Source of the DNA: a virus
Taxonomy: Duplodnaviria; Heunggongvirae; Uroviricota; Caudoviricetes
IMG/VR virus record: IMGVR_UViG_3300044799_000708
DNA length: 64,000 nt
Strand: one strand, 5' to 3'
Every line of letters starts with the position of its first letter. The stretch's first letter is position 1. Below are positions 14,643 to 31,732 of this stretch, piece by piece. Made by a program: the position numbers and the translations under genes. The notes beneath the pieces were generated by a model. The model was not told where the DNA came from. It saw only the letters and a program-made list of their open reading frames with translations, and did no database searches.

Positions 14643-14655
14643 CTATATCACCTTT

Positions 14656-15360: not shown

Positions 15361-15597
15361 TTACATCACCTTCTTTATTCTCTTTTTCCAGATTTCTCCT
15401 AATTTTTTCTTTAATTCCTTTTCATCTATAAGACTTGACCCAACTATACCTCCAGCCGTTGCTAATGACAAAGGAACACCAATAGCAGGTTCTGTTAAAA
15501 GTAATGCTAATGGCACTCCTCCTAAACCAGCACCAGCCAGTTCTGGATAATACCTTTTTAACATTTTTTTTATTTCTGGTTTTTTCATATGTTCCAC
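15361..15597 (-). CDS. small glycine-zipper membrane protein (78 aa)
   Basis: AGAGLGGVPLALLLTEPAIGVPLSLATAGGIVG; ends IKKVM. Confidence 0.5.
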   Translation of the reverse strand: MEHMKKPEIKKMLKRYYPELAGAGLGGVPLALLLTEPAIGVPLSLATAGGIVGSSLIDEKELKKKLGEIWKKRIKKVM

Positions 15598-15954: not shown

Positions 15955-16098
15955 ATCATATCACCAGTCCCATTTTGCGTTTAAGGTATCTTTCACGCTC
16001 TCGTTCTTCTAATGTTAATTCTCTTTTAGGAAGAGCGAGCAAGTCTACCAGTTCCAGTTTTTCCTTTTGTGTCAGCCCCTTTCTTTTTGACCCTTTCA

Positions 16099-16284
16099 TT
16101 ATATCACCTTTTTTATTTTTTTCTTCCATTCTTTGGCAAGTTTTTCTGCTTCACGTTTACTTGGAAGAACATCTGCATCAAAGACGACAAGACTTCCATC
16201 TTTCTCCTTGTAATATCTTCTCGTCACCCATGCAGGTGGAGAAAGTTCATCATCATAGTATACATCGACATATGTTTTCTTCAT
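16099..16284 (-). CDS. hypothetical small protein (61 aa), copy 1 of exact duplicate
   Basis: Identical protein and DNA to 19976..20161. Confidence 0.55.
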   Translation of the reverse strand: MKKTYVDVYYDDELSPPAWVTRRYYKEKDGSLVVFDADVLPSKREAEKLAKEWKKKIKKVI

Positions 16285-16298
16285 TTTATATCACCTTT
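16101..16298. repeat. 198-bp segment duplicated exactly at 19978..20175
   Basis: Nucleotide-identical; contains a whole 61-aa gene; both ends lie in the tatatcacc junction motif. Confidence 0.8.
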
Positions 16299-16454
16299 CT
16301 TATTTTTCCTATAATTCTATTCAAATTTCCTATTGTTGTTTCAAAATCTTTCTTGAAATAAGCTGAACGCTCATCGATGTCGCTTCTTTTTATTTCATTT
16401 AAAATTTCAATTAAATCATTTGCTTCTGTTTTTGTTAAATGAATTACTTTCATA

Positions 16455-17147
16455 TCAAATCACCTTTTCCAATTTTTTGACGAAATGTGCCTTTTCCCAT
16501 GTCTTTATTTTTTCAAGTTCACCATGAACGAAATCCTCGAATTTGTGTATGTCTTTTTCGATTTCTGCCTGCAGTTTCTTGTTTCTTATGAGTTTTTCTG
16601 CGACCACGCCTGCGACAATGGGTGAGGAAGCAATTGCCCAAGCAAGCGGTGGGTTTACTGCTTCGAGTTCTTCAACCAATGGCATAAGGAACTGCGTGCC
16701 TACCACTGTTGACCCCACGAAAGCATATGGATAGTCTTTTGCCTTAATCCTTTGGACATAAAGAGGATAATGGATTATTGGAATCATGCCGAAAATAGGC
16801 ATTTTTGCCTGCTTCTGGACATGGAGAATTTGCCCTTTTACCGCTTTGTCTATTCCTATGAACAGGTTCTTTTCTTTGTCGTGGGCATATCTGTCACCCT
16901 TAATATTGGCATAGATGTCAAAACCCTTCACCCTTTCTTTTACCTTTTTGAAGAATGGAATTCTTGTATCTATGTCCATTTCCTTTGTTACTTTCAACCT
17001 TTTGTGCCAGTTCTCTTCGCCCATGCCAATAAGTTCCCCTGTCTCTTCATCGAGGACATAAGGCAGTTTTTTCTTTGTGTCCAAGAATCTTATACCTGCT
17101 TCATCTGATATACCTGCAAGTTCGTATCTGAATTCCTTTCCCTTCAT
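16455..17147 (-). CDS. hypothetical protein (230 aa)
   Basis: Array member; ends LEKVI. Confidence 0.55.
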   Translation of the reverse strand: MKGKEFRYELAGISDEAGIRFLDTKKKLPYVLDEETGELIGMGEENWHKRLKVTKEMDIDTRIPFFKKVKERVKGFDIYANIKGDRYAHDKEKNLFIGIDKAVKGQILHVQKQAKMPIFGMIPIIHYPLYVQRIKAKDYPYAFVGSTVVGTQFLMPLVEELEAVNPPLAWAIASSPIVAGVVAEKLIRNKKLQAEIEKDIHKFEDFVHGELEKIKTWEKAHFVKKLEKVI

Positions 17148-17443
17148 ATAACTTCCTCAAGTCTTTCTTTTCCTTTCATGCCAGCCTGCCAAAAAGAGCC
17201 TCCGTATAATTTCTTTTCTTTAAGACTCCATTTGGTCATCAATGCACCTAATCCGACAGCACCAGCACCTATGACTATTTCTGGGTTCAGACCTGCAAGG
17301 AAAACGGAAGATAGCCCTCCTTCCATGACTGCCATATCGATTAGGTCATTGTGTTTTCTGTAGAATTCCCTTATTTTTGCTGGCTCATGCTTTATTTTTC
17401 CGAATTCTCTGTTCAGGAATTCTATGATTTTTCTTTTGTCCAT
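17144..17443 (-). CDS. small glycine-zipper membrane protein (99 aa)
   Basis: EGGLSSVFLAGLNPEIVIGAGAVGLGALM; ends LEEVI. Confidence 0.5.
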   Translation of the reverse strand: MDKRKIIEFLNREFGKIKHEPAKIREFYRKHNDLIDMAVMEGGLSSVFLAGLNPEIVIGAGAVGLGALMTKWSLKEKKLYGGSFWQAGMKGKERLEEVI

Positions 17444-17594
17444 TAGATTACCTTTTTCAATTTTTCTATAGTTATTTTTACATCTTCAATGGTCTTTTCT
17501 TCCCATTTATTCCATTTTATATTATCATGCGGAAAATCCATTATATCTTCAATTTCTGTTCCCTTTTTGAATATTTTTGATATTTTTTGGGGCA

Positions 17595-18014
17595 TCATAT
17601 CACCCTCTTCAATTTATTATCTTTGTAACTGATGCGAATATTATTGAAAACTGCATCCCTTGCCCTTTTAATTAATGTTGGTGTGAGAAATTCTTTTGGT
17701 TGTTCCTCTGTCCCTGTTTCAAAACTCGTAATAAATGGTGCTTTTCCGAATACTATTTTATAGTCGTGGGCGAGTCCGTTATAATCTGCAACAAGACTTC
17801 CGATTTTTTCAAGGATGTATCCGTGTCTTATCAGTGGCTCTAAATCGCCTTTCCATTTGGCAACCTCCATTATTATTCCATTTGCCCTGTTCACCATAGA
17901 TGTCGAAATGGCTATGCTTTCATTTATGGCAGGAACATTGGGGATTCTATTTGCGTGTTCCGATAGTTTTTCGAATTTGATATTTGCGGATTCAATGTCG
18001 TTTTTGGTTATCAT
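17595..18014 (-). CDS. hypothetical protein (139 aa)
   Basis: Array member; ends LKRVI. Confidence 0.5.
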   Translation of the reverse strand: MITKNDIESANIKFEKLSEHANRIPNVPAINESIAISTSMVNRANGIIMEVAKWKGDLEPLIRHGYILEKIGSLVADYNGLAHDYKIVFGKAPFITSFETGTEEQPKEFLTPTLIKRARDAVFNNIRISYKDNKLKRVI

Positions 18015-18133
18015 ATTAAACCACCTTTCCGATTTTCTTGCTTATCTTTAGCTTTTCATTAAGGTTTGCCTGTTTGAAAGGCAAATTCCATAGCTTTAAG
18101 CTTTTGATAAATTCCGAATGCCATCCTGCCATA

Positions 18134-18385
18134 TCAAATCACCCTTCTTAATTTTTTTCTATCCAGTCTTTCTATTTCTTTAAGCGTATCTGCCATTTCC
18201 TTGCTGCAAAAATCAAGTTCTGTTTTTAACTGGTTTCTCACCTTTCTGAAAGGTTCTGCTCTGATACCTACTCTTTTTGAAAGTGAATCGAAATGCTCAT
18301 ATTCGCTGGCTGTTTTGTTTTTCATTCCAAGCACTTCTCCAAAATACTGAACCAACCTTTCCCTTTTATCTGATTTTTTCATCAT
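18134..18385 (-). CDS. hypothetical small protein (83 aa)
   Basis: MM start; ends LRRVI. Confidence 0.5.
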   Translation of the reverse strand: MMKKSDKRERLVQYFGEVLGMKNKTASEYEHFDSLSKRVGIRAEPFRKVRNQLKTELDFCSKEMADTLKEIERLDRKKLRRVI

Positions 18386-18390
18386 ATCAC

Positions 18391-18756
18391 CTATTCTATA
18401 TATGATAATTTTGCTTTATCTCTGTCAATTTTTTGTTTTTCAGTTGTGCCTGCACCCATCATGGTTTCTGCGAGTTTTCTTAACATTGGGTCTGATTTCA
18501 TTTGTTCAAGCATTTTCTGTTTTTCTTCTATTTCCAAAACAGTTTGGGTAGCCATTCTCGAACTCCATCCCCATGAAAAATCAGTCATTCCCATTGCCTT
18601 GAAATCTTGGACAACATCGCTCAAAGTATTATGTTTTTTCAATACGTCAATAAATTGCATTTTATCTATTCCAATAACTCGGCTATCATCCAAAGGTTCT
18701 TTCTTTTTTAATTTGTTTATGAATTGTTCACCAGTAATACCTATTTTTTCTTTCAT
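18391..18756 (-). CDS. hypothetical protein (121 aa), paralog of 15598..15954
   Basis: Shared ..F..LKK.. core and C-terminal KLSYIE. Confidence 0.5.
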   Translation of the reverse strand: MKEKIGITGEQFINKLKKKEPLDDSRVIGIDKMQFIDVLKKHNTLSDVVQDFKAMGMTDFSWGWSSRMATQTVLEIEEKQKMLEQMKSDPMLRKLAETMMGAGTTEKQKIDRDKAKLSYIE

Positions 18757-18972
18757 TCAAATCACCTTCTCCAAAGCACTACGAATTCTTGGATTGTTCA
18801 TCGCCTGTTCATGGGGCGAAAATCCATACCTATCAAGTTCATCCTGCGTTATCGTGAAGGTTATTGGAATCTGCATTCTTACAGTTCCATGAGGCTCTAA
18901 CATTCCAGTTTTTGGGATATGCCTTTCTTCCTTTCGTTTCTTCAATATATTTTTTATGAATCCCAATGCCAT
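18757..18972 (-). CDS. hypothetical small protein (71 aa)
   Basis: Array member; ends LEKVI. Confidence 0.5.
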   Translation of the reverse strand: MALGFIKNILKKRKEERHIPKTGMLEPHGTVRMQIPITFTITQDELDRYGFSPHEQAMNNPRIRSALEKVI

Positions 18973-19221
18973 TTAGACCACTTTTTTTAATTTCTTTCTT
19001 GCAGAGAGTTTTCTATCCAGTTCTTTAATCAATTCAGGTCTCTTTTTTAGTTGTGGATAATCCCCTCTATGCGCTAACACGGCAACCCAATAGTCATGTA
19101 TATCATGCTTCAGCCCTTTGATATTCATCGCATGAAAACAGGTATTGCAAGGATAACCTGTATGTTGTATTTCACAACCAGTCTTTGCGACCAATTTCTT
19201 TCTGAAAATTTCTTTATCCAT
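18973..19221 (-). CDS. hypothetical small protein (82 aa), Cys/His-rich
   Basis: CEIQHTGYPCNTCFH..; ends LKKVV. Confidence 0.5.
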   Translation of the reverse strand: MDKEIFRKKLVAKTGCEIQHTGYPCNTCFHAMNIKGLKHDIHDYWVAVLAHRGDYPQLKKRPELIKELDRKLSARKKLKKVV

Positions 19222-19451
19222 TACACCACTGCCTCCAATTTCCTTGCCTTCACCTTTTTTATTTTGTATGCCATCTCTCCCAACCGTATTGCTGGCATAT
19301 CTCTAAATATACTGCCCTTTGGTTGGCTTTTTGCCCATTTTTGATATTTTGCCTCATATCTTTTCTTTGCCTCTTCAGCCTGTTCTTTGGTTGGATAAAT
19401 TTTTTTGGGATACCATTCAAATTCATCCATTTCTTCAAGAACAAATGCCAT
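19221..19451 (-). CDS. hypothetical small protein (76 aa)
   Basis: Ends LEAVV. Confidence 0.5.
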   Translation of the reverse strand: MAFVLEEMDEFEWYPKKIYPTKEQAEEAKKRYEAKYQKWAKSQPKGSIFRDMPAIRLGEMAYKIKKVKARKLEAVV

Positions 19452-19476
19452 ATCAAATCACCTTTTTTCCTTTCAT

Positions 19477-19974
19477 CTATACCACCGCCTCAAGTTTTCT
19501 TGCCTTTCTGCATACAAGAATCTCTTCCGAAGGCAGAACGCTTGTAGGCACTTCTGCCCTTTCGACTTCTTCTGTTGGCACTACCGCTTCAGGTGATGGA
19601 ACGCCACCAAATTCCCATTTCTTTCTTTTTGCGCCTTCCACAATCCCTTCGCCGATAGCACGAAATCCATGTTCGATGTGCGTTTCCATACTTGCTATCC
19701 TTTCGGCTGGCGTTAAGCCTTCAATGCTCATCTTGTGGCGCAGACCTTCTGCCATAGCATGAAGAAATTTATGCTCTTCTGGACTTTCAGTTGCCCAGTG
19801 AATAATGCCACTTTTTGTGCGGTGCAGTATTCCACGATGCTTCGGCTTTTCTTCCAGTTCTATTTCCTTTTCTGGAAGCCCTTCCGCAGATAGCTCAACA
19901 TACTCGTCTTTTCTGACTCTTGACCTGTCCATAATGCTTTTCGCTTTCGACCTCTTCAATAGACTTTCTGCCAT
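19477..19974 (-). CDS. hypothetical protein (165 aa)
   Basis: Ends LEAVV. Confidence 0.5.
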   Translation of the reverse strand: MAESLLKRSKAKSIMDRSRVRKDEYVELSAEGLPEKEIELEEKPKHRGILHRTKSGIIHWATESPEEHKFLHAMAEGLRHKMSIEGLTPAERIASMETHIEHGFRAIGEGIVEGAKRKKWEFGGVPSPEAVVPTEEVERAEVPTSVLPSEEILVCRKARKLEAVV

Positions 19975-19975
19975 A

Positions 19976-20161
19976 TCATATCACCTTTTTTATTTTTTTC
20001 TTCCATTCTTTGGCAAGTTTTTCTGCTTCACGTTTACTTGGAAGAACATCTGCATCAAAGACGACAAGACTTCCATCTTTCTCCTTGTAATATCTTCTCG
20101 TCACCCATGCAGGTGGAGAAAGTTCATCATCATAGTATACATCGACATATGTTTTCTTCAT
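19976..20161 (-). CDS. hypothetical small protein (61 aa), copy 2 of exact duplicate
   Basis: Identical to 16099..16284. Confidence 0.55.
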   Translation of the reverse strand: MKKTYVDVYYDDELSPPAWVTRRYYKEKDGSLVVFDADVLPSKREAEKLAKEWKKKIKKVI

Positions 20162-20175
20162 TTTATATCACCTTT
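19978..20175. repeat. second copy of the 198-bp duplication
   Basis: See 16101..16298. Confidence 0.8.
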
Positions 20176-20399
20176 TCCAATTTTTTTATTGCGAACATTC
20201 CTGTTCCATTTTTTCTCGGAAATGCTCTATAATAATATCCTTTTTCTGGTTTTCTCACATAGATTGCTCCATTCTTCAAAATAACAGAAACTCCTGCTCT
20301 TCTAAAATCTTGTATCATTGCATTCCAAATACCTTTGGGTCTGATATAGATTTTATTTCTGAATCGAATTCTTTCAGGCGTAGGTTTCCATTTCTCCAT
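20163..20399 (-). CDS. hypothetical small protein (78 aa)
   Basis: Ends LEKVI. Confidence 0.5.
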   Translation of the reverse strand: MEKWKPTPERIRFRNKIYIRPKGIWNAMIQDFRRAGVSVILKNGAIYVRKPEKGYYYRAFPRKNGTGMFAIKKLEKVI

Positions 20400-20744
20400 T
20401 CATATCACCTTTTTTATTTTTCTTTTGGCGAGATAATCACTAATTTTTTGACCTAAAATATCTCCAAGTCCCCACGCACCGAATGGTAATGCCACCACGC
20501 CAAGTTCGGGATGACCAAGAACTATTCCTATTACTGTCTCTCCAGTTGCAATCCCTGCAGTCAATTTAGCCCAATCTTTAGCACCAATTATTTTTTTTGC
20601 CATCATATCACCTTTCCTATCTTTTTGCACGCACAGAATTTGACCGCTTTCTTGAATTCTTTTTGCCAAGCCTTTTTGCCAGAATAACGCTTTTTTGAGA
20701 GTTTTGTCTTCATGCATCTTTGGAATTTCATAAATTTTCTCCAA
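20400..20744 (-). CDS. small glycine-zipper membrane protein (114 aa in track, probably 105 aa)
   Basis: Track start is TTG; in-frame ATG at 20717 is more likely and sits near the AT-rich promoter. Motif GIATGETVIGIVLGHPELGVVALPFGAWGLGDILG; ends IKKVI. Confidence 0.5.
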   Translation of the reverse strand: MEKIYEIPKMHEDKTLKKALFWQKGLAKRIQESGQILCVQKDRKGDMMAKKIIGAKDWAKLTAGIATGETVIGIVLGHPELGVVALPFGAWGLGDILGQKISDYLAKRKIKKVI

Positions 20745-21430: not shown

Positions 21431-21641
21431 ACTGGAGTTTTTGCTGGTCGATAGAATGTTTCATGTTGTTTAGCTCTTGTATTCTTCTGCGTATTTCCCT
21501 GACCCTTTCGGCAAGTGCGAGAAGTTCCTCCCTGTTGGCATCTGGGTTTGTAGATGCTTCCTCTTCAAGATAACCTTCAAGACCCAGAGAATGCTTTTGA
21601 CCAACCAATTTTATTGGTTGTTTGTCATGCACTCTGGACAA
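21420..21641 (-). CDS. hypothetical small protein (73 aa)
   Basis: Coiled-coil-like (LALAERVREIRRRIQELNN); overlaps downstream gene start. Confidence 0.4.
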   Translation of the reverse strand: MSRVHDKQPIKLVGQKHSLGLEGYLEEEASTNPDANREELLALAERVREIRRRIQELNNMKHSIDQQKLQSTV

Positions 21642-22738
21642 TTTTGACCTCGAAGATGGTCTTCCAAAGCTATTCCATTTTTAATCGCCTGTTCCTTATG
21701 CCAATTGGAATGGTCTGTATGTTCATCCATATTATTCTCCTCCATAAAATTTTTAATTTTTTCTAATATTTTATTTTTGTCCTCATAAATTTCATTTTCC
21801 CATAAAACAAGCATTTTATACCCATATTTTTCATAAATTTTTCTTCGACCATATTCCGTCTGTCTAAATTTTGTAGCACCTTCTCTATGCCAATAATTTC
21901 CGAAAACTTCAATAATTAATTTTTTTCCATTACATTCTATAAAATCTGGATTTATTCCTCCGATAATAAAAGACCCATTACCAACATATTTATATGGTAA
22001 ATTATTTTTTTCAATTAAATTTTTTATTTCTATTTCTGGTTTTGTTGGTCTTTTCAATAATGATTTGAGCATTTTTTCTCTATTTAAGTCAGTTATTTTT
22101 CGTATATTTTTAAGATAAATCAACCAACATTCCCAACTACAAAATTTTCTTCTTGCCATCTTTGATGGATAAATAAGAAATGGTTTCTTACAGGTTTCGC
22201 ATATTTTTCTAACCTTTTCTTTATAATTTGGGTTATTTTCGCCCAATCTATTTTTAGAGAAAAATTTATTTGAACATTCCTGACTACAAAATTTTCTTTT
22301 ACCAGAATTACATTTTTTTGAATGAAACAATTTTATTTCTCCGCAATTTTGGCATTTTATTTTATATTCTTTGTAATTTGGATTATTTTTTCCACGATTA
22401 TAATCACTTTTTCTTTGCCATTCACTATAACATTTTTTATTACAAAATTTACCTATTTTGGACTGTATTTGCGATGGCAATTCTTCTAACCGATTTTTGC
22501 AATTTGGGCAAAAAAGGACAACTCTTTTTTTTCTTCGTTGTGGTTGTGATTCATGTCGTTTTGGGTCTTGCCTATAATATGCATATTGACATTTTTCAGA
22601 ACAAAATTTTATGTTATGAAAACCATCACTTTTATACAACTTTCCACAAAAAATGCAATTTCTATCATGCATTTTTACTCGTTCCCATGCCATGAATATA
22701 TTTAAATAACCCAAATATATAAATAAATATGGCTTCAA
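21611..22738 (-). CDS. homing-endonuclease-like protein: tandem zinc ribbons + C-terminal Vsr/DUF559-like PD-(D/E)xK domain (375 aa)
   Basis: Four CxxC..FCSxxC repeats with recurring G(K/E)NNPNYKE; C-terminal NLPYKYVGNGSFIIGGINPDFIECNGKKLIIEVFGNYWH matches the DUF559/Vsr-like nuclease signature; paralog of 41710..42657. Confidence 0.55.
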   Translation of the reverse strand: MKPYLFIYLGYLNIFMAWERVKMHDRNCIFCGKLYKSDGFHNIKFCSEKCQYAYYRQDPKRHESQPQRRKKRVVLFCPNCKNRLEELPSQIQSKIGKFCNKKCYSEWQRKSDYNRGKNNPNYKEYKIKCQNCGEIKLFHSKKCNSGKRKFCSQECSNKFFSKNRLGENNPNYKEKVRKICETCKKPFLIYPSKMARRKFCSWECWLIYLKNIRKITDLNREKMLKSLLKRPTKPEIEIKNLIEKNNLPYKYVGNGSFIIGGINPDFIECNGKKLIIEVFGNYWHREGATKFRQTEYGRRKIYEKYGYKMLVLWENEIYEDKNKILEKIKNFMEENNMDEHTDHSNWHKEQAIKNGIALEDHLRGQNCPECMTNNQ

Positions 22739-22962
22739 AAGCTATAATCGGGGCTTTTCTCATTCTTATTATTCTCTCGTATATAATGGTCATAAATTCC
22801 CTGAATTTCGATATGGCATACAAGGTTCTGCTTTATATCCCTGCGCTTTTGCTGTTCCTTGTCTTTATGTATATGGGTTTCGGTAACAAGTCTCCTACCG
22901 AAGATGTCGGTGGCTTTCCATATTTAGAATATGCTTATTTCTCCAGTCTCGGCACTTCTTGA
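22729..22962 (+). CDS. small membrane protein (77 aa), uncertain
   Basis: Two hydrophobic helices; only plus-strand ORF in the region and may be spurious. Confidence 0.25.
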   Translation: MASKAIIGAFLILIILSYIMVINSLNFDMAYKVLLYIPALLLFLVFMYMGFGNKSPTEDVGGFPYLEYAYFSSLGTS

Positions 22963-25509
22963 AAAATACAGATAGAGTATGAAGACCGCTATCAAACCGA
23001 TGAAGACATATATCCATATCTGATACGCAGGCAGCACGCAGGCATTCTTCACGCAGCCATATGTGCATATCTGCTCATCTGTCTCTATATATGTCTTGTT
23101 CAGCGAGCCTCTGATATATTTCGTGGTATATTTCACAAGCGTTACGTTATCTTTGCAAGACCATAGTGCATTTTCTTCACCAAGACCCCCGAATGGAAGG
23201 AAGCCCATATAGGCGTAGCCTTTTGACGCTATTTTATCGCCTCCGAAGGCTACAAGCATACCTATTACCTCGTCTTGGCTTGTGGTTATGTTGATGGTAA
23301 GGTTGCTGACATTCATCAATCCGTTTATTATGCTGTTATTCAGTGATGTTATTTCATCCTGTATCATAAACAGTTTGTTCATTATTGTGGTGTTTACCAT
23401 CCCGATTAGATTGTAGATGAGCGTGAGATTATTATTTATGTCTTGAAGTTCTCCCTGAATGGTAAATAATTTTCCCCAGATGCTCTGGTTAACGGCGAAA
23501 ATAGTTGCATTTATTTCGTCTATTTTATTTGACAAGGAAAGATTAGTTGCAGAAATGAGACTGTAAAGGCTGTTATAATGGAGGTTCTGCGTGTAATTCA
23601 TGTCCCAGAGATATGTGAATATTCCGCTTTGGTTGTAGTCGGTGAGAGTCCTGTTCGGGTGAGACCATATTTGCGAAGGCATGGAAAGGATTGTGTTCGT
23701 GATTCCATTTTCGCCGAGAAGCAGTGTTGTTTTTATTGTTGATTCCCTGTAAAATCTCAACTCATCCCAGTTTTGCAGATTTTCTCCTGCCGTATTTATC
23801 GCCAGCGAGGAGTTGTAGTAAAGTTCCGACCAGTAGAAATCATCATATAGGTGATGGCAAGTGGATAAGTATGGGTCGTTGCTGACTATTGTGCTGTTTG
23901 TTATCGGGGAGACATATGTGTAATTGGATATATTTGCAATCGAATCGCAGTAGGGAACTATCAAATTTTTGATGTTTATGATTTGGACATAGCTCCAGTC
24001 TATTTCCCATTTTACATAATTGTCCATTTTTATGCGGTATTCGTATGTATTACCCCTGACCAAATCGATAGGCACGAATATATTGCAACTGCTATCTGCT
24101 TCCGTGAATGTCAATAATGTTTCCAAATCAATATCTGTCCAGCCAGTCCCATTATATTCCTTTAACCAGTATAATGCATCGCAACTGACGCTTGGGGGTG
24201 TTCTGTATTTCCAGTATTGACCATCTTTTGTTTCTAATGCAATTATCGTTATGTTATCTTCAAGTTCGCCTTCTGGCATATTGAATTCTCCTGTATTGGT
24301 GAAAACAGCACAAGCCGATTCCAGAGTTACACTCGTTACTTCAGTTGTTTCACCGCATAGGGTTGTCATGGTATATGGAAGGTCTTTTGACGAAGAGACA
24401 TGGATTTCGCCTGAACCTATTATCTGCTGGTATTGCGATGAAAATTGTGCGATGACATCGACATGGACATAATCGCTTTTGAAAAGATTTAGTGATGCAT
24501 CTGTTATGTTGGTATCGTTGAATAAAATGGACACTATTCCGTTATTTACCAGACCGCTTGCCGTTGCATTAGTTGTTAGTATTGTATTCGTAACCGTGAC
24601 CACGCTTCCTCCTGTGTCTGTAATTTTGTTCGGCAGTTCAATCCAATTTCCGCTTGTGAAATTCTTTATGTGAATGGTGATGCTATCTCCTGATGGTGCG
24701 GAATTCCATATACCTGCCCAAGATATGCCTAATCCTGTTTGCAGTGCTGGCTGTGTCACATTTGTGAAGTTCATTCTTATTTGGATTTGCCGTGTCACAT
24801 TGGTTAATATTTCTCTCACAACCCAGTATACAGAATCCAGAATCCAAGTTGATATATAGTCCCCCGATGTCGTAGTTCCTATGTCCACGATACCAGATGT
24901 GGCATTATTTTGCACAGTTGTCGTTACATAGTAGCAATTCACTATGCTTGGGTATACTCCAACTTCGTTTGGAACTAAAAAATTATAATAATATATCCCT
25001 TCTTCAATAAACGACATCAAAGCTTTTTCAAACAGATGACCACTACCATTTGCTGGTCTGTAAATATCTACATAGCACGTTGCATTATCAACTGGTAGTT
25101 TATTCGCATCCAGAACTTGAACCCATATCTTTCCACATTCTCCGATTGTATATTCTGTCCCATGAACCGTAATCGAAGGTGAATTCTGGTAAACCTGCTG
25201 TTTCATTATCTTCAGTTCATCATATATTTTTTCAAGTGCAGTGGAAGTGTCATTCTTCGGGAGTTCGTTGCATGATGGTGTTTCGAATATTTTTGTGTCA
25301 TCTATCCTGCAACCATATCTGCAATCTTCATGGTAAGTATATGTGCATATTTTTAGTTTCGTATCAAGAATTCCTTTCGTGTATAGGGTAGAATTCGTGC
25401 ATATGTCTGGGCAAGTGCCATTGATAGGCTGTATTTGTATCTGCGCCTTTGCGTTAATTGCTAAAAGAAGAAAGAATATTATCGGAAATATAAAGGCTAT
25501 TTTTTTCAT
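22924..25509 (-). CDS. giant secreted surface (glyco)protein with C-terminal membrane anchor (861 aa)
   Basis: Signal peptide MKKIAFIFPIIFFLLLAINAKA; more than 40 N-x-S/T sequons; C-terminal TM IWIYVFIGLIAVFILYLYF + tail SRSAETGEISIF. Confidence 0.65.
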   Translation of the reverse strand: MKKIAFIFPIIFFLLLAINAKAQIQIQPINGTCPDICTNSTLYTKGILDTKLKICTYTYHEDCRYGCRIDDTKIFETPSCNELPKNDTSTALEKIYDELKIMKQQVYQNSPSITVHGTEYTIGECGKIWVQVLDANKLPVDNATCYVDIYRPANGSGHLFEKALMSFIEEGIYYYNFLVPNEVGVYPSIVNCYYVTTTVQNNATSGIVDIGTTTSGDYISTWILDSVYWVVREILTNVTRQIQIRMNFTNVTQPALQTGLGISWAGIWNSAPSGDSITIHIKNFTSGNWIELPNKITDTGGSVVTVTNTILTTNATASGLVNNGIVSILFNDTNITDASLNLFKSDYVHVDVIAQFSSQYQQIIGSGEIHVSSSKDLPYTMTTLCGETTEVTSVTLESACAVFTNTGEFNMPEGELEDNITIIALETKDGQYWKYRTPPSVSCDALYWLKEYNGTGWTDIDLETLLTFTEADSSCNIFVPIDLVRGNTYEYRIKMDNYVKWEIDWSYVQIINIKNLIVPYCDSIANISNYTYVSPITNSTIVSNDPYLSTCHHLYDDFYWSELYYNSSLAINTAGENLQNWDELRFYRESTIKTTLLLGENGITNTILSMPSQIWSHPNRTLTDYNQSGIFTYLWDMNYTQNLHYNSLYSLISATNLSLSNKIDEINATIFAVNQSIWGKLFTIQGELQDINNNLTLIYNLIGMVNTTIMNKLFMIQDEITSLNNSIINGLMNVSNLTINITTSQDEVIGMLVAFGGDKIASKGYAYMGFLPFGGLGEENALWSCKDNVTLVKYTTKYIRGSLNKTYIETDEQICTYGCVKNACVLPAYQIWIYVFIGLIAVFILYLYFSRSAETGEISIF

Positions 25510-25539
25510 ACATATTACTTACTTGTTTTATTTAAATCT

Positions 25540-28167
25540 TCACAGCACAAGCCCTTGCCATACTGCGACAATCATCAGTATGATAATCGTTATGCCTATC
25601 ATCACCTTCGCTATCATTTCTGGGTCTCTCCAAGAGTATCCGAAATATAAAAGCGTCATAACGGAGAACAGACCCATTATACCGAAGCCAATCGTAAGGA
25701 CAAGTTGACCTGTTATTGAAGGCATCTGGTCTATTATAGGAACTGATGCAAGTATTACATTGAATTCTCTACTGGTATCCATAGTTAATGATGTCATGTT
25801 CGCTACATATCCGCTCTTCGTGGCTGTTATGTTGTGCGGAGTCGAGTTTGTCCTGCTGTTTAATTTTGTTACATAGTAGTCAAGAAGCCACACATCTTCC
25901 GAATCGGAGAATGATGAGACCTCATCGCCTGTTGAGTTGTAGATTTTCACGCTGGCTGAAAGCGGATTCCTGACCGAAAGATTCCAGTAGACGTTGAGCC
26001 TTGAGTAGTTGATATAATAGTCGGTAAGAGTAGTGTTATACAGGCTGTAGGTGTTGTTGTTCCAACATGGAGGATTAATGCAATATGTGTAAATAGCACC
26101 GAAACTGCTGTTTGTTGAGCCTCTTTCTATTCTGCTGTTATAAATGTCAATATGACCATATCTACTGTTGTCTATGGAAAATGCTATGTTGTTTCCATAA
26201 ATATACGAATTGATAATGGTAATATTTAGTTTATCTGTAGGGGAAACTAAAGTATCGAAAGTGCCACTCACAAATGGACTTGCTGCATTATTTATGTTGT
26301 AAAAAGTGGAATTTATTATATCAATTTGTCCTGAACCAGAAATAAACATAGTAATATTATATTCATTGCTGATTTTATCCATTCTGAAGACTGAATTTTT
26401 AAGCGTAATATTGTTTCCGCCTATGGCATTCCCAAAACTGGGAATGGTTGTATTATATACACTGACATTGTCAAGAACAGAGTCATTCACTGAAGACAGC
26501 AGACTGAAAGCCCCCCTCTCCCTTATGAAAATGTTTGAAATTTCAAGATTCTTGCTTCTATAAGCAAATATTCCATCCTCGCCGTCAAATATTCCATTCT
26601 TTATTTTCGAACCAGTGGAATTGCAGAGATATATACCACTTATATTGTCTGGAACTGGGTTTATGTCAACGGTGTCATTCGTGAATAACGGCACTTTGCC
26701 GTCAGTTGCAGTAAGGTTAATGAATGACCTTAACGAGTGGCAGGCACTTCCAGTTGCAGCAAGAATTCTATAATCAAGAACTATGTTGTCATGCGAACTT
26801 ATGTTTTCAAGAGTAGTGTTGTAAATAATTGATAAATCCATCCCAACATAATTGTCATACAATTCAGAGTTTACTATGGTTATATTGTTACTACCAGCAA
26901 CATTCAAGCCTTCTACAATTGGTATACCAATTCTTGTAACATTATGAATAACAAGTTTTTCTGCATATGTATTGTTAGAACCTGAAATCCTTATGCCATA
27001 ACCAAATGAAGATGTTGAATTTATGTTATACACCTCTATATCGCTCAAAATGACGTTATTGCATCTATCAACAAAAAGACCATAGGGGCTGCTATAATTC
27101 ATGTCATAAATCGTAGTATTTTCAATAGTTTCGTTGTTGCAGGGAACTGAAATATATATTCCCCTTTGACCACTTTTCTCGGATATGGAATTGTTTATGA
27201 CAGTATTGTTTACATTCGATAATTGAATGCCATATCTCGAATTGTTCGATACAACCACATTATCGAAAATAGCGAGGTTTACTGAATTCAAAGAAATGCC
27301 ATCTTGGTAATTGGATATGTTTACGTTCCTTGCCGTGAAATTGTAGCTGTTGGAAGAAATGTCTATACCTCTCACATTGGCACTATTTCCGTAAGCGGTG
27401 AAATTCTCGACTATGTTGTTCTTGCCATCAGTGAGGCGCAATGCGGTGCTGTTCGACAGACATCTTATGTTGGTGAAAACAGAATCATTAATCGGCTTGT
27501 CAGCATAAAGGCATCGGTTAGCAGATGTTATGTTTATGTTATTAATTATGTAATTGTTTCCCCCACCTAAGTCAATTCCATTATAGCCATAGATAATGCC
27601 GTTAGAAAATGTCATGTTAAAACCGTAATTAAGTCCAAAAATTGTGGCTTGGCTGCCAGCAGAAACATTAATCATAAAATCATTGAGCGTAAAATTCATT
27701 ATGTTCCCATTGAGCTGAATCCCTTGTGTTGTGACATTGGTAATGGATATGTCGTTCATTGTAATGTTAATGTTGCTGGCATTACTCAAGTATCTCATCC
27801 CATAGCTACCGCCACTAAAGTTAATGTTTGACAAAAGCAAGTTTGTTATTCCGCCCTGAAACTGTATACCCTGATTGGCTGTTGAGTTTATGCTACAATT
27901 TTCAATAGTTGCTAAATTAATTAAGGTTGTAGTATATACTAAACTTTGTAAACCATTTAAGTATGAGCCATTGCAATCCAATGTGATATTGCTGGCAGTA
28001 ATATAAAAGCACCATCCAAGAGGTGAATTTATCGAGGCGTTCATCACATAGGTTTCATTCTCGGTGGAAAGAGTCTGGCAGGTGTCGATGTATGTCAGGG
28101 CAGAGACACTATTACAAAAAATAAATAAAAATAAGAATACAATTGTCAAAATGCCTATCTTCTTCAT
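25540..28167 (-). CDS. giant surface protein with right-handed parallel beta-helix repeats and C-terminal membrane anchor (875 aa)
   Basis: Signal peptide MKKIGILTIVFLFLFIFCNSVSA; repeated N-N-x-I/V-x-N pectin-lyase-like turns (NNTVINNSISEKSGQRGIYIS.., NNVILSDIEVYN..); very many sequons; two C-terminal TM helices. Confidence 0.65.
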   Translation of the reverse strand: MKKIGILTIVFLFLFIFCNSVSALTYIDTCQTLSTENETYVMNASINSPLGWCFYITASNITLDCNGSYLNGLQSLVYTTTLINLATIENCSINSTANQGIQFQGGITNLLLSNINFSGGSYGMRYLSNASNINITMNDISITNVTTQGIQLNGNIMNFTLNDFMINVSAGSQATIFGLNYGFNMTFSNGIIYGYNGIDLGGGNNYIINNINITSANRCLYADKPINDSVFTNIRCLSNSTALRLTDGKNNIVENFTAYGNSANVRGIDISSNSYNFTARNVNISNYQDGISLNSVNLAIFDNVVVSNNSRYGIQLSNVNNTVINNSISEKSGQRGIYISVPCNNETIENTTIYDMNYSSPYGLFVDRCNNVILSDIEVYNINSTSSFGYGIRISGSNNTYAEKLVIHNVTRIGIPIVEGLNVAGSNNITIVNSELYDNYVGMDLSIIYNTTLENISSHDNIVLDYRILAATGSACHSLRSFINLTATDGKVPLFTNDTVDINPVPDNISGIYLCNSTGSKIKNGIFDGEDGIFAYRSKNLEISNIFIRERGAFSLLSSVNDSVLDNVSVYNTTIPSFGNAIGGNNITLKNSVFRMDKISNEYNITMFISGSGQIDIINSTFYNINNAASPFVSGTFDTLVSPTDKLNITIINSYIYGNNIAFSIDNSRYGHIDIYNSRIERGSTNSSFGAIYTYCINPPCWNNNTYSLYNTTLTDYYINYSRLNVYWNLSVRNPLSASVKIYNSTGDEVSSFSDSEDVWLLDYYVTKLNSRTNSTPHNITATKSGYVANMTSLTMDTSREFNVILASVPIIDQMPSITGQLVLTIGFGIMGLFSVMTLLYFGYSWRDPEMIAKVMIGITIIILMIVAVWQGLVL

Positions 28168-28255: not shown

Positions 28256-28606
28256 TTACAGGAAGACCGTAAGGATGAACATCAGCACACCAGCACCAAC
28301 TACCAGACCAACTACAGTCGCAGAAAGCAACGGTATTCCAGTCACCTGATTGACTGCGCTGATAAGGGTCGGAATAAGGTATACTGCAATAGTTACGCCA
28401 ATGATACCTTCCACGAATCCCTTCGTGTATTCTCTCACATCGAACTTTGCGTATTCAGCCATATTTCTCACTGAAAAATAGTTCTTCGAGATTGCTAATA
28501 AAGAGGGCTTACCAAAAAAGTGGAGGGATGTCCCCTCAAAAAAATATAGGAATCCTATAAAAAATGTGAACCACCACACAAAAAATTTTATATATGTTAA
28601 GAACAA
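28256..28606 (-). CDS. membrane protein (116 aa)
   Basis: Three hydrophobic helices; divergent from the plus-strand island. Confidence 0.45.
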   Translation of the reverse strand: MFLTYIKFFVWWFTFFIGFLYFFEGTSLHFFGKPSLLAISKNYFSVRNMAEYAKFDVREYTKGFVEGIIGVTIAVYLIPTLISAVNQVTGIPLLSATVVGLVVGAGVLMFILTVFL

Positions 28607-28617: not shown

Positions 28618-29100
28618 ATGGTAGACATAAATTTTAATTTAACAGAAAGAGAAAAAGGATGGTTAGAAGGTATCATAGATGGCGAAGGTTATCTTGCAAT
28701 TTTAAAAAATAAGAACAAGAATAGTAAAAATGGATATGTATGGTCAATGTATCTATCTGTTACCAGCACAAGAAGGGAAATATGTGAAAAATTATTAAAA
28801 TTGTTTAGTAATGAAAAATATGTTGGCGGTAATATAATTAAAAAACCTGCAAAAAATAAAAATTGCAAGGATGCTTATTATTTTATGGCTAAAAGATATT
28901 CTGCCAAAAGGATTTTGCCTCAATTAAATTTTGTAATAAAAGAAAGGCATAGAGAATTACTAATTAAGGCACTCGACCTTGTAGAAAAATATAGAATAGG
29001 TGAATATTTTATGGGCGGAAATGGAAGACCGCCAGAAGTAGAAAATGAAATTATTAAATTATATGAGGAAATGAAAATATTAAATAAGAGAGGTAATTAA
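28618..29100 (+). CDS. LAGLIDADG homing endonuclease, single-motif type (160 aa)
   Basis: Motif KGWLEGIIDGEGYLAI near N-terminus; size and K-rich C-terminal half fit I-CreI-like homodimeric enzymes; TTTTATATAT 22 nt upstream of ATG. Confidence 0.7.
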   Translation: MVDINFNLTEREKGWLEGIIDGEGYLAILKNKNKNSKNGYVWSMYLSVTSTRREICEKLLKLFSNEKYVGGNIIKKPAKNKNCKDAYYFMAKRYSAKRILPQLNFVIKERHRELLIKALDLVEKYRIGEYFMGGNGRPPEVENEIIKLYEEMKILNKRGN

Positions 29101-29101: not shown

Positions 29102-29401
29102 TTGCAACTGACTCAAAAAGTTATAGATTTTCTTGTGGAAATGCGAAAAAATAATAATGAAATCACAAAAAGAGACCAGAAAATGTTTGATGATGTGCGT
29201 TTCTATGTTATGACAGGCTATTTGTCCAATATTGGTCTAATATATTGTAATGGTGTCAATAAATACAATCAGAAAAGATGGAAACTTTCTGAAAGAGGGG
29301 AAAAGATAGCCGAATTACTGGAAGGGGTAATGAATATTTATTATGAAAAAGGAGGCAAGGAGAATGGCAAAAAGAAGGGCAAAGGGAATTCTGCTCGATA
29401 G
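29102..29401 (+). CDS. hypothetical protein (99 aa)
   Basis: Plus-island ORF; K/G-rich tail. Confidence 0.45.
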   Translation: MQLTQKVIDFLVEMRKNNNEITKRDQKMFDDVRFYVMTGYLSNIGLIYCNGVNKYNQKRWKLSERGEKIAELLEGVMNIYYEKGGKENGKKKGKGNSAR

Positions 29402-29969
29402 TGACTTTAGCGGAAGGGAAGTTACGGTCTCGATAGACTCTGGCTTTACGAAGATTGATGTTGATAAGAATTTGAAATTTGATTTTTTCACGGATAGGAC
29501 AAAGCCCATTAAGATTTTCCGTGATGGTCTTCTCCAGAAAGATGTAAGCGATTTCTATATCTTCAGTTGGAAGTCGCTGATACCTTTGGAGTTTGAATTG
29601 AGGCAGGAACTATGGAAAAGGGATGAAATATATGAAAGAATGAGGAGCAACAATTTTACCGAAGAGGAAATTGAAAGATTCCAGAAGGATGTGGAGAAGA
29701 AGGAAAAGGAAGGCTACAACATGGATTATTTTGTTTTCAAGGCTTTAGAGCCAGTCGAAATAACGAAACAGCACTGGGCAAAGACGGAATTGCCTTCAAT
29801 CATCAGGGATACTGTTGATATGAGGTTTTTGAAAGCCCTGAAGACCTATACTGAAGGCACGAAAGGCGGAATAGGCAGGGGGGCGATAATAATTTTCATC
29901 GTAATATTTATGGTTTTAGTTCTGGTATATGCATATATGTCGGGAGGGGTATTCAAATTACCAACATAA
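29343..29969 (+). CDS. hypothetical protein with C-terminal TM helix (208 aa)
   Basis: C-terminal GAIIIFIVIFMVLVLVYAYM. Confidence 0.45.
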   Translation: MKKEARRMAKRRAKGILLDSDFSGREVTVSIDSGFTKIDVDKNLKFDFFTDRTKPIKIFRDGLLQKDVSDFYIFSWKSLIPLEFELRQELWKRDEIYERMRSNNFTEEEIERFQKDVEKKEKEGYNMDYFVFKALEPVEITKQHWAKTELPSIIRDTVDMRFLKALKTYTEGTKGGIGRGAIIIFIVIFMVLVLVYAYMSGGVFKLPT

Positions 29970-29972
29970 ACT

Positions 29973-30332
29973 ATGGCTAATATACGAGATAGATTACAGA
30001 AGACCGAAGGCGGTGAGCTTTTCGGTCTCGAAGAAGCTTTGGCAAAAATAAATATGGAACTGCTGAACCCTTCGGGTGAAAAGCTGTATACTGTTTCTGA
30101 TGTGACTGCAACGGAAATCTTTCCTCTTGCATATCTGCTTACGCTTTCAAAAAAACTGGATTCGAAGCTTATGGAAAAATGGGCTGAAAAATTCCTGCTA
30201 TTGAGGATTTCAAGGTTCAGGCTTGGAAGGCGTGAATTTGTTTTTATTTCAGGGGGTCTGCGAGAAGTAAGTGAAGCAAGGAAAGGCGGACAGAAGGGAG
30301 GCTTGGCAAATCTTTTTTCGGGCTTTAAATGA
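29973..30332 (+). CDS. hypothetical protein (119 aa)
   Basis: Plus-island ORF. Confidence 0.45.
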   Translation: MANIRDRLQKTEGGELFGLEEALAKINMELLNPSGEKLYTVSDVTATEIFPLAYLLTLSKKLDSKLMEKWAEKFLLLRISRFRLGRREFVFISGGLREVSEARKGGQKGGLANLFSGFK

Positions 30333-30997: not shown

Positions 30998-31038
30998 ATG
31001 GTTCTATTCGGCATCATAGGGGAAAACTGAAATCTATT

Positions 31039-31107
31039 ATGGATTTTAGTCCCAATTTAGGTGCTGGTAAGACCTTAACTCTGGCATATTTGTCTTGGTT
31101 AGTATGA
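31039..31107 (+). pseudogene. orphan Walker-A (P-loop) fragment of the downstream Zot-like ATPase
   Basis: MDFSPNLGAGKTLTLAYLSWLV then stop; different reading frame (phase 1) from the Walker-B-containing ORF 31208 (phase 2). Confidence 0.4.
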
Positions 31108-31207
31108 AAGGAAAGAAAATTCCTATTATGCCCAAAAAAATTGGTTCAGAAAAAGGTCAAAATTATATTGTAATTTCCATCTATATAAAATACCATATAT
31201 CCATATT

Positions 31208-31732
31208 GTGGCTATTGACCAGATTACACAGATGCACGATGGTCACGTTTCACTCGATGAACTTTGGACAATATTAGATGCAAGGGCATCTGCCTCTACG
31301 AGAAATAGGTTTGTTGCGGATATAATGCTGAAATCGAGGAAAAGAGACCTTACCATTATGTTCACGACACAGCTTCTGGATATGCTTGATAAAAGGGTGA
31401 GGAAAATAATGGATTTTACAGCATACACATTACTAAACAGAGTTGAGACATTGGGGAAATGTTTCATCTTTCGTGGTGGTTATCCAAAAGACCATATGCT
31501 TCTCAAGAGTTTCATGTTCTACACACAGCCTGTATTTGGTATGTTCAATACGAACCAAGAAATCCAAATGGAGGAATCAAGCGATAATGCGCCTATGAAA
31601 ATTGTGTTCCAAGAAAGCCCAGAAAAGCCACCGAAATATTTTGATACATGGGAAGATTGTGACCATTATGCTGAAAAGTGGTGGGAAAAAAATGGCAAGG
31701 AACTTTTATCTTTTCTTATAACAGGTCAGTGA
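31208..31732 (+). CDS. Zot-like (inovirus pI-type) P-loop ATPase, C-terminal portion lacking in-frame Walker A
   Basis: HVSLDELW (Walker B hhhhDE) followed by RKRDLTIMFTTQLLDMLDKRVR matching the Zot family R-x-x-D..TQ motif; track start is GTG. Confidence 0.45.
   Translation: MAIDQITQMHDGHVSLDELWTILDARASASTRNRFVADIMLKSRKRDLTIMFTTQLLDMLDKRVRKIMDFTAYTLLNRVETLGKCFIFRGGYPKDHMLLKSFMFYTQPVFGMFNTNQEIQMEESSDNAPMKIVFQESPEKPPKYFDTWEDCDHYAEKWWEKNGKELLSFLITGQ

Follow-up and report, generated by a model that had tools for sequence, protein, structure and literature searches.

The stretch of DNA analysed here (the window; 64,000 nucleotides (nt) of IMG/VR virus record IMGVR_UViG_3300044799_000708, classified in Caudoviricetes) has 35% G+C and carries its genes mostly on the minus strand. 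Two large neighbouring genes, which we call A861 and B875 after the lengths of their products in amino acids (aa), and a small gene for a 68-aa hydrophobic protein directly upstream of B875 are the subject of this analysis. The features of these three genes are as follows.

22924..25509, minus strand: A861, 861 aa.
A861 aa 1-22: signal peptide.
A861 aa ~30-80: small N-terminal Cys-rich beta domain.
A861 aa 91-108: helix.
24019..25179, minus strand: three beta-sandwich/jelly-roll domains of A861, aa 112-215, 229-372 and 379-496 (core aa 111-497).
23176..24018, minus strand: helical bundle (aa 498-606) and heptad-periodic stalk (about aa 607-778) of A861.
A861 aa 639-731: long helix with heptad periodicity, predicted local distance difference test score (pLDDT) below 50.
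22927..23175, minus strand: membrane-proximal Cys-rich mini-domain of A861 (C785...C815-x-Y-G-C819...C824), transmembrane (TM) helix 828-854 and short tail.
A861 aa 781-814: second small Cys-rich beta domain in the model.
25540..28167, minus strand: B875, 875 aa.
28099..28167, minus strand: signal peptide of B875, aa 1-23 (hydrophobic segment aa 1-27; model helix 4-18).
26938..28098, minus strand: N-cap and predicted right-handed parallel beta-helix body of B875, aa 24-410, about 15 coils of 23-24 residues.
25744..26157, minus strand: conserved C-terminal beta domain of B875, aa 671-808, which precedes the anchor.
25543..25743, minus strand: hairpin cassette of B875, aa 809-875, two hydrophobic helices with a short DP-containing loop (alignment A7).
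28256..28462, minus strand: 68-aa protein with two hydrophobic helices, read from an inner ATG of a 116-aa open reading frame (ORF); first gene of the module described below and candidate major capsid protein.

A861 and B875 are separated by 30 nt on the same strand. Both ORFs are real, since open frames of ~860 codons in DNA of 35% G+C cannot be due to chance and both have homologs; the pair of giant ORFs reported in the initial annotation is exact in its coordinates. Each protein begins with a Sec-type signal peptide composed of a Lys-Lys n-region, a hydrophobic core and a cleavage-like site (AKA followed by Q, or VSA followed by L), the N-terminal segments being MKKIAFIFPIIFFLLLAINAKA, followed by Q, and MKKIGILTIVFLFLFIFCNSVSA, followed by L. 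The latter belongs to B875, and its position is kept in the homologs. At the other end, A861 has one hydrophobic helix (aa 828-854) and B875 has two (aa 819-841 and 849-874). The combination of signal peptide and C-terminal anchor, as had been suggested, is present in both proteins, but the end of B875 is a two-helix hairpin and not a single anchor. No Pro-Gly-Phe of a PGF-CTERM/archaeosortase motif occurs in the C-termini ...NACVLPAYQIWIYVFIGLIAVFILYLYFSRSAETGEISIF and ...PSITGQLVLTIGFGIMGLF...VAVWQGLVL. Both sequences are also rich in N-x-S/T sequons, with 51 in B875 and 33 in A861 compared with 22.6 +/- 3.9 and 12.3 +/- 3.1 in composition shuffles, which corresponds to an enrichment of 2.3-2.7 times; five cytoplasmic or inner-membrane proteins of the window have sequons at the shuffle expectation. 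Using the homologs, it could be seen that this density is kept (per 100 aa, 2.3-4.7 with a median of 3.6 for A861, and 3.7-6.2 with a median of 5.3 for B875). More than 40 sequons had been counted for both proteins, which is correct for B875 and too high for A861, although both are enriched over shuffles. These features support the anatomy of exported, predicted N-glycosylated and C-terminally anchored surface proteins for both A861 and B875.

That B875 contains a right-handed parallel beta-helix, as the initial annotation had proposed, was confirmed at the level of the predicted structure. Pfam Beta_helix (PF13229) matches two stretches, the best at aa 267-379, with 48.3 bits against a cut-off of 25.9 (E=1.1e-12), and NosD (PF05048) is barely above its cut-off (24.3 bits vs 23.6); nos genes (nosZ/nosF/nosY operon context) were not present among the window ORFs examined. 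The AlphaFold2 model, built on an alignment of 7 sequences (A1), is an unbroken stack of short strands with pLDDT 80-90 over aa 20-380 and weaker beta structure further on. In this model ~15 coils are confident, and the autocorrelation of Asn and hydrophobic residues peaks at 23-24 residues. The C-terminal part of the model consists of a beta domain at about aa 680-805 (pLDDT about 70-84) followed by the two terminal helices. When the model was compared with the PDB by Foldseek, all 50 listed matches were beta-helix (pectate-lyase-fold) proteins, including AlgE4/6 epimerases, the HK620 tailspike, Klebsiella K1 lyase, and the glycoside hydrolase (GH) and polysaccharide lyase (PL) families GH87, PL6 and GH28. 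As the E-values were 4e-4 to 2e-2 and the identities 10-13%, this likeness is one of fold and not of family. The dozens of N-N-x-I/V-x-N turns, on which the beta-helix had originally been based, were not recovered, the strict motif being present 3 times (0.4 expected) and a loose version 8 times.

Relatives of B875 in sequence are few: 6 were found among 5.8 billion clusters, all of them on virus-like contigs, and the PHROGs scans gave no match to A861 or B875. Among the homologs, the best-conserved parts are the N-cap and the C-terminal beta domain (0.47-0.49 identical), and the helix body is the least conserved. The N-cap has conserved cysteines in the motif C-x-T-L...C-F-x-I-x-A-x-N-I-T-L-D-C-x-G. 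Some relatives retain only the C-terminal 200-450 residues of B875, and the homolog at L001, one of the related metagenomic loci designated here by L numbers, matches aa 673-875 only.

The last 67 residues of B875 (VPIIDQMPSITGQLVLTIGFGIMGLFSVMTLLYFGYSWRDPEMIAKVMIGITIIILMIVAVWQGLVL) constitute the hairpin cassette. A hidden Markov model made from alignment A7 matches the extreme C-terminus of more than 20 ORFs of very different length (217-1386 aa) at loci L001-L006 and L010-L016. The cassette is common to all proteins that occupy the variable slot in the closer relatives, with up to four of them in tandem per genome, and the ectodomains that it carries are different: a beta-helix, Big_13 with CarboxypepD_reg, Big_7 with a Cys-rich domain, or a part that is unrecognisable. 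Viral receptor-binding proteins typically evolve in this way, with a conserved end next to the particle or membrane and distal heads that can be exchanged. No Pfam family matches the cassette, which was not found in the IMG/VR scan and was present at 7 loci only in the JGI metagenome scan. A derivation of the cassette from a duplicated capsid protein was considered and rejected (hhalign probability 5-14%). At the more distant L018 (6702..9945 of NCBI QMVV01000008.1), the slot proteins of 278 aa and 747 aa share a C-terminal hairpin of their own with a different sequence, IPNGLNVVAS.AIVAGFL.FLI.L...SGLNT...IYGTIG..II.S.L.YLLTG, which is a second cassette family on the same principle.

A861 belongs to a family with 62 homolog clusters of 520-1354 aa, none of which is functionally named ('hypothetical protein' or no name). 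A copy with 100% identity is located on a 75,859-bp JGI contig. The protein has no Pfam or PHROG match, and the family profile searched against PDB sequences gave coiled-coil or generic noise only (E about 0.1 or above). In the model, which was obtained from an alignment of 44 sequences, pLDDT is 85-97 over aa 112-600, helices are placed at aa 498-527, 546-569, 574-606 and 639-731, and the hydrophobic autocorrelation of the sequence peaks at 7, 14 and 21. Foldseek matches of this model in the PDB were macroglobulin-domain arrays, carbohydrate-binding modules and Gram-positive adhesins, and those in BFVD were ConA-like lectins, BIG2 proteins, and phage receptor-binding, tail-fibre and baseplate proteins; the model thus points to an adhesin architecture without a specific family. 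Conservation is highest in the beta-sandwich core and lowest in the N-terminal tip and the stalk. The stalk differs in length by up to ~300 aa between homologs (alignment A3), and some homologs have an additional copy of the first sandwich domain. In the membrane-proximal domain, C785, C815, Y817, G818, C819 and C824 (C-x-Y-G-C) are invariant in the 13 closer sequences of alignment A3. The two Cys-rich domains of A861 (aa 30-80, 25180..25443; aa 781-824, 22927..23175) resemble each other in the pattern C..N.TL......C.YGC, with 33% identity over 36 aa (E=0.043, single comparison), and the homolog P0011 has the N-terminal copy duplicated.

The 68-aa protein is the most conserved of the three. 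In three contigs (L001, L004 and L006) its identity is 97%, 90% and 79%, respectively, and on the same contigs the homologs of A861 are 56%, 64% and 47% identical and those of B875 28-43%. Such a decrease from the 68-aa protein through A861 to B875 is the one to expect when a capsid protein is compared with receptor-binding proteins. When 1.84 billion representatives were searched exhaustively with phmmer, 12 clusters of the family were found, all of 63-71 aa except for one 39-aa fragment, and the family was present in 11 of the 11 related loci tested (among them L001, L004, L006, L007, L010, L013, L015, L016, L018 and L019). The protein fits the shape of the capsid proteins of spindle-shaped viruses, which have ~65-95 aa, two hydrophobic helices, a short loop and high conservation, and its motifs ...L-I-P-T-L...V-N-x-V-T-G-[VI]-P-L-L-S... 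parallel LLPVIVSQVNNLT...LVPLFYIL of SSV1 and NLLPTAFDQIFN...LLPLLSVVG of His1. Using hhalign, a profile of 14 sequences was aligned with SSV1 VP1, SSV1 VP3 and His1 VP21 over 23 columns (E=3e-4, probability 40%), and the score of 24.3 exceeded that of 200 column shuffles (9.5 +/- 1.8, maximum 17.4). With a shallow profile of four sequences against His1 VP21 alone, E was 0.2; for scale, His1 VP21 itself matches the fusellovirus VP1 PHROG profile with E=0.029. Since a reversed control and an unrelated hairpin come close to the real score, we treat the homology as suggestive only. In PHROGs, the family matches phrog_13918 (function not named) only (E=0.003). The 68-aa profile had no homology with PAV1 ORF121, and the capsid-like motifs were not found in the supplements of an ANME-1 virome preprint. 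Spindle-shaped viruses with hydrophobic capsid proteins have been described in papers on Bathyarchaeia and ANME-1 viruses, and no tie of these to the present group was found.

The adjoining 68-aa gene gives the pair of B875 and A861 its context. The three genes recur as parts of one conserved module. Beyond them, on the opposite strand, the window has the following genes.

28618..29100, plus strand: LAGLIDADG homing endonuclease (Pfam and PHROG matches), between the capsid-like gene and the divergent trio.
29141..30332, plus strand: conserved trio (86/99 aa, 208 aa and 119 aa), transcribed divergently and part of the module.
30998..31732, plus strand: Zot-like P-loop ATPase of the module (weak Pfam Zot match), with two frameshifts in the window.

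The order of the module is the divergent trio of small genes (with the Zot-like ATPase beyond it where the locus reaches that far), the 68-aa gene, one to four large signal-peptide proteins, and the A861 homolog, which is the last large gene and is followed by a long run of tiny orphan ORFs. This order holds wherever the locus is long enough, and its part from the 68-aa gene to the A861 homolog is found in the window, L001, L004, L006, L007, L018 and L019. A NosD/Beta_helix protein is also encoded immediately before the A861 homolog, on its upstream side, in L006 and L019. By tblastn, the trio is 40-87% identical in L001, L004 and L006, with weaker matches in L007. The ATPase of the window is frameshifted near 31020 and 31100, so that its Walker A motif (GAGKT) is out of frame with the start and with the Walker B part, and this copy could be a pseudogene or an assembly error; the gene is intact in L019 (4401..5171) and L007 (2676..3413, minus strand), and its homolog in L006 carries an intein with a LAGLIDADG domain. 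The LAGLIDADG gene of the window is absent from this position in L001, L004 and L006 and lies outside the conserved module.

The reference collections of phages, plasmids, viral contigs and genomes that were searched contain next to nothing of the group. No match to A861 or B875 was obtained when 50,697 phage and archaeal-virus records were searched at the DNA and the protein level (including tblastn), protein searches of 72,556 plasmid records gave no homologs, and pattern scans of 185,579 GTDB species genomes with A861 (A3) and the 68-aa protein (A4) gave no relatives. The sole A861 locus in the IMG/VR scan was L007, a distant one on a viral contig. The initial annotation had pointed out that homologs restricted to chromosomal adhesins of one host genus would suggest a host island; the homologs found are on virus-like metagenomic contigs only. 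With regard to the host, L018 was binned with a 'Thermoproteota archaeon' metagenome-assembled genome (MAG), and the nearest named relatives of the TnpB protein encoded at 1189..2412 (plus strand) are in Candidatus Aenigmarchaeota MAGs (52-56% identity), followed by Methanothrix (about 47%). These TnpB relatives and the Thermoproteota bin, together with TFIIB/A2L zinc ribbons, the sequon bias, the intein and LAGLIDADG content, and translational coupling by GGTGAT Shine-Dalgarno sequences, are signs of an archaeal host.

Compared with known systems, the locus has the adhesin design of spindle-shaped viruses, that is, a signal peptide, a sequon-rich beta ectodomain and C-terminal hydrophobic helices, beside a gene for a small hydrophobic alpha-hairpin protein. 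In the cryo-electron microscopy structure of SSV19, a beta-sandwich and then a hydrophobic helical bundle make up the C-terminal end of both the tailspike VP4 and the adaptor B210. The capsid protein VP1, itself hydrophobic and composed of two helices, is stacked on this bundle; the tail is heavily glycosylated, and VP4 bears a carbohydrate-directed domain (PMC9351363). Like fusellovirus VP4 (SSV1 C792; SSV19 VP4) and B210, A861 and B875 are large, beta-rich and, judging from their sequons, glycosylated; a beta domain precedes the C-terminal hydrophobic helical module, two different proteins share a type of docking module, and a domain directed at carbohydrate, here a putative one, is a further common trait. 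In contrast to the Z-shaped three-helix bundle of the fuselloviruses, however, the anchor is a two-helix hairpin in B875 and a single helix in A861, the head of B875 is predicted to be a pectate-lyase-fold beta-helix whereas VP4 has a pseudo-sixfold mannanase-like core, and the genome is about five times larger than that of a fusellovirus. The comparison with spike proteins of archaeal viruses that the initial annotation called for gave no sequence homology to SSV1 VP4, His1 VP27 or PAV1 ORF676/898; with SSV1 VP4 the hhalign probability was 0.2%, which means no similarity. The likeness to His1 (Halspiviridae) is in gene order and design. Its record has a two-TM capsid gene of ~70 aa (ORF21, encoding VP21); downstream of it, ORF26 and ORF27 (VP27) both combine a signal sequence with a C-terminal anchor, but are much smaller (281 and 505 aa) than the proteins of the window. 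In the PAV1 record, large ConA-like lectin proteins with jelly rolls (ORF676, ORF678 and ORF898) come after the 'membrane protein' ORF121, in which we see the capsid protein, and the best BFVD neighbour of A861 is likewise a protein of the ConA-like lectin/glucanase superfamily; there is, however, no profile similarity, and the PHROG families are different.

Two further classes share the fold of B875. Tailspikes and depolymerases of phages (HK620, P22-type, Klebsiella K1 lyase) are right-handed parallel beta-helices and are modular, with a conserved particle-binding end, as we propose for B875, and a variable head. They are attached by the N-terminus, cytoplasmic and unglycosylated, whereas B875 has the features of a Sec-exported, sequon-rich protein with a C-terminal hydrophobic hairpin and without identified catalytic residues. 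The archaeal NosD-like/PbH1 surface proteins (PF05048, PF13229) are matched by B875 above the Pfam cut-offs; unlike them, it stands outside a nos operon context, and its cassette was found only in B875 and its relatives. Finally, the spike and fusion proteins of pleolipoviruses (HRPV VP4/VP5), which we compare by description only, presumably have a signal peptide, a C-terminal TM helix, glycosylation and a location beside a small membrane protein and an NTPase in common with A861, which is about twice as large and has three beta-sandwich domains and a long helical stalk.

On the basis of these observations, the reading that we favour and hold to be fairly probable makes B875 and A861 surface proteins of a virion, exported and N-glycosylated, in an archaeal virus that is uncultured and probably spindle-shaped. 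In this large virus, with a contig of about 76 kb, the two genes would lie at the distal end of the structural (morphogenetic) module. The proteins would be exported by Sec, heavily N-glycosylated on the outer face of the host membrane, retained there by their C-terminal hydrophobic helices, and then assembled into the virion with the 68-aa protein, the most likely building block of a capsid lattice like that of spindle-shaped archaeal viruses. B875 would occupy a variable receptor-binding slot, in which the beta-helix ectodomain binds a glycan of the host surface, cutting being optional, and the 67-residue hairpin cassette plugs any head into the particle. A861 would be the conserved last component, a string of lectin-/Ig-like beta-sandwiches on a helical-bundle and coiled-coil stalk of adjustable length, anchored by the Cys-rich domain and one TM helix, and may serve as a second adhesin or entry protein. 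The proposal of the initial annotation that the two are candidate receptor-binding or envelope proteins is supported by their predicted exported, glycosylated and anchored anatomy and by the one beta-helix; its suggestion of glycan-degrading activity is not supported.

Several results weigh against a virion-surface role in a spindle-shaped archaeal virus. The hhalign probabilities of A861 and B875 against SSV1 VP4, His1 VP27 and PAV1 ORF676/898 are at most 1.2%, their fold matches are generic with TM-scores of 0.1-0.3, and the model of B875 is poor over aa 411-490 and 572-647. For the 68-aa protein, the reversed control (19.5) and the unrelated cassette hairpin (19.8) are near the real hhalign score of 24.3, whose probability is just 40%; no capsid protein was identified with confidence, and the particle is known from genes alone. 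Replication or integration genes able to decide between virus and plasmid were not identified, and since the ATPase is frameshifted, the copy in the window could be defective or mis-assembled. One homolog is in a bacterial 'WOR-3' MAG, and the host assignment is weak.

Several alternatives have to be considered for the same genes. Compatible with a binding role, and not exclusive of it, is the possibility that B875 is primarily an enzyme, a virion-borne depolymerase (GH, lyase or epimerase) that degrades the S-layer glycan or capsule of the host as phage beta-helix tailspikes do. Every structural neighbour of B875 is a carbohydrate-active beta-helix (AlgE4/6, the HK620 endoglycosidase, Klebsiella K1 lyase, GH87, PL6 and GH28), the beta-helix protein just upstream of the A861 homolog in L019 has a weak Pel9A-like match, and a putative endo-mannanase domain is present on the SSV19 tailspike (PMC9351363). 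However, the Foldseek matches are as remote as stated above, Pfam yields no GH or PL family in B875 beyond the generic Beta_helix and NosD, and the profile search of PDB sequences gave no solved relative below E=0.1 (best E=0.14). When a constellation of catalytic Asp/Glu was searched for, E254 was the only acidic position conserved in at least 3 of 4 diverged homologs over aa 101-410, with no cluster (7 sequences; the alignment of repeats is unreliable), and conservation within the protein is lowest in the helix body. The glycan-degrading activity that had been suggested thus found no backing, and enzymatic activity of B875 is neither supported nor disproved; as a primary function we consider it unlikely. 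We give similarly little credit to an enveloped or pleomorphic particle, pleolipovirus- or plasmid-vesicle-like, in which B875 would serve as the receptor-binding spike, A861 would be the membrane-fusion protein, and the 68-aa protein would belong to the membrane or a matrix. The predicted layout of A861, with its beta-rich head, helical bundle and long helices (aa 498-731), heptad peaks at 7/14/21, Cys-rich membrane-proximal domain and single C-terminal TM helix (828-854), recalls spikes of class I type, and the constancy of A861 beside a variable upstream slot is in keeping with a conserved entry apparatus whose receptor binder can be exchanged. Pleolipoviruses typically have a P-loop ATPase beside their structural genes, here there is a Zot-like one, and the capsid-protein homology of the 68-aa protein is weak. 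On the other hand, the sequence of A861 has no obvious fusion peptide or cleavage site, its long helix is of low confidence in the model, which is that of a monomer (pLDDT below 50), and variation of the stalk by up to ~300 residues is unusual in a spring-loaded fusion core. The 68-aa motifs are closer to the capsid proteins of spindle-shaped viruses than the controls are, and to our knowledge the genomes of pleolipoviruses are all far smaller than ~76 kb.

It could also be supposed that the locus belongs to a plasmid or integrative element and that the proteins are adhesins of the host-cell surface (for symbiont attachment of the DPANN type, surface remodelling or superinfection exclusion) and not virion parts. 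Signal peptide, sequons and TM anchors exactly suit a cell-surface protein, and archaeal surface proteins often contain NosD-like beta-helix domains such as the one matched in B875. Of the named TnpB relatives, the nearest belong to the DPANN lineage Aenigmarchaeota, relatives of the locus are binned in MAGs, and no hallmark capsid, portal or terminase gene was found. We nevertheless judge this to be quite improbable, as it would be hard to explain for plain adhesins why they are tightly and universally linked to the ATPase and to the ultra-conserved 68-aa hairpin protein, and why one to four tandem genes with swapped heads have a cassette in common. In addition, neither the 72,556 plasmid records nor the GTDB pattern scans contained homologs, one relative is on an IMG/VR viral contig, and the contigs are crowded with tiny orphan ORFs and homing endonucleases, as in archaeal viruses.

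The two protein families seem to be undescribed so far, as do the shared hairpin cassette and the combination of a beta-helix head with an exported protein. Spindle-type archaeal viruses with glycosylated, C-terminally anchored adhesins are an established idea; what the present locus adds is accordingly new families and a new variant of anchoring, without a new principle. Entry and host recognition are, as far as we know, the least understood steps of archaeal viruses, with very few receptor-binding proteins known, and the locus offers a recurring module in which a capsid-like hairpin is combined with exchangeable heads on a shared hydrophobic cassette and with a single conserved protein on a stalk, in a virus group that is essentially missing from the phage and plasmid records, IMG/VR and the GTDB pattern scans. 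If an exported, glycosylated virion protein carries a beta-helix head, the tailspike principle known from phages would apply to archaeal viruses without tails as well. A more far-reaching proposal, which we regard as doubtful, is that the cassette is an undescribed universal plug-in adaptor, by which interchangeable heads that are Sec-exported and glycosylated are mounted on a lattice of hydrophobic capsid hairpins, and A861 a new entry or fusion class with an extendable coiled-coil stalk. The two would then jointly be the attachment and entry apparatus of a new family of large viruses, spindle-shaped or enveloped, with DPANN or further uncultured archaea of sediments as possible hosts. The profiles of the A7 cassette, A861 and the 68-aa protein can be used as handles for finding further members and for predicting host-range modules in metagenomes.

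With regard to the remaining gene content, dozens of tiny ORFs without Pfam match fill the window and the related contigs, together with homing endonucleases, an intein and YopX. The window has no tRNA or Rfam match, and ribosomal RNA, other Rfam RNA, tRNA and housekeeping genes were absent among those examined on these contigs. Recognisable genes of the window are two TnpB genes, LAGLIDADG, HNH/Vsr-like and NUMOD3-like endonucleases, YopX, a DprA-like SLOG protein, SPFH, LemA, TPM and radical-SAM enzymes. Homing-type endonucleases flank or invade the structural module at 21611..22738 (minus strand), 28618..29100 (plus strand) and 41710..42657 (minus strand), and at 8825..9994 of L001. They include a zinc-finger-repeat protein with a DUF559/Vsr-like domain, the LAGLIDADG enzyme, and a NUMOD3-like protein that has a C-terminal '...EKNNLPYKYVGNGSF.IG...PDF' domain in common with the zinc-finger protein. 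In L001, an RRXRR/HNH gene is located between the two adhesin genes. The TnpB (OrfB_IS605 / Cas12f-like TNB) genes are at 1189..2412 (plus strand) and 37051..38169 (minus strand), and a TnpA-TnpB pair lies just downstream of the A861 homolog in L004.

A second gene cluster of envelope type is found at 2624..6238 (minus strand), where a gene for a 140-aa multi-TM protein accompanies the following pair.

3039..6238, minus strand: two signal-peptide proteins with C-terminal multi-helix segments, 520 aa (20 sequons) and 546 aa.

The 520-aa protein has 2-3 C-terminal helices and the 546-aa protein about 3. Neither has the A7 cassette, and both are possibly additional virion surface proteins. At 51139..55383 (minus strand), a membrane-associated cluster encodes a TPM-domain protein, LemA and a membrane protein of 492 aa that has zinc ribbons of the TFIIB type and a tail rich in Cys and Ala, followed by a radical-SAM/SPASM enzyme. 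The PHROG label 'virion structural protein' on the LemA gene was discarded, as it reflects merely the LemA family.

About 37 consecutive small genes at 6261..20717 (minus strand), as well as genes at 53983..55302 (minus strand), encode the C-terminal peptide ...K-[KR]-V-I. Their DNA ends in AAGGTGATATGA or AAGGTGATATAA, and the next ATG follows 0-4 nt on. We initially considered '...KKVI' as a sorting signal, which was dropped, since the DNA that encodes the peptide is a GGTGAT Shine-Dalgarno sequence embedded in the last codons (GTG ATA stop); this ending points to a very long operon whose genes are translationally coupled. A gene end of the GGTGAT type is missing from the structural genes (68-aa, B875, A861, and those of the 520-aa and 546-aa proteins, p520 and p546). 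A paralogous pair of ~120-aa proteins, encoded at 15598..15954 and 18391..18756 (both minus strand), ends in ...KL[TS]YIE instead of ...KVI, and the segment 16099..16453 is repeated at 19976..20399, with identical C-terminal peptides (EWKKKIKKVI) and the same downstream sequence.

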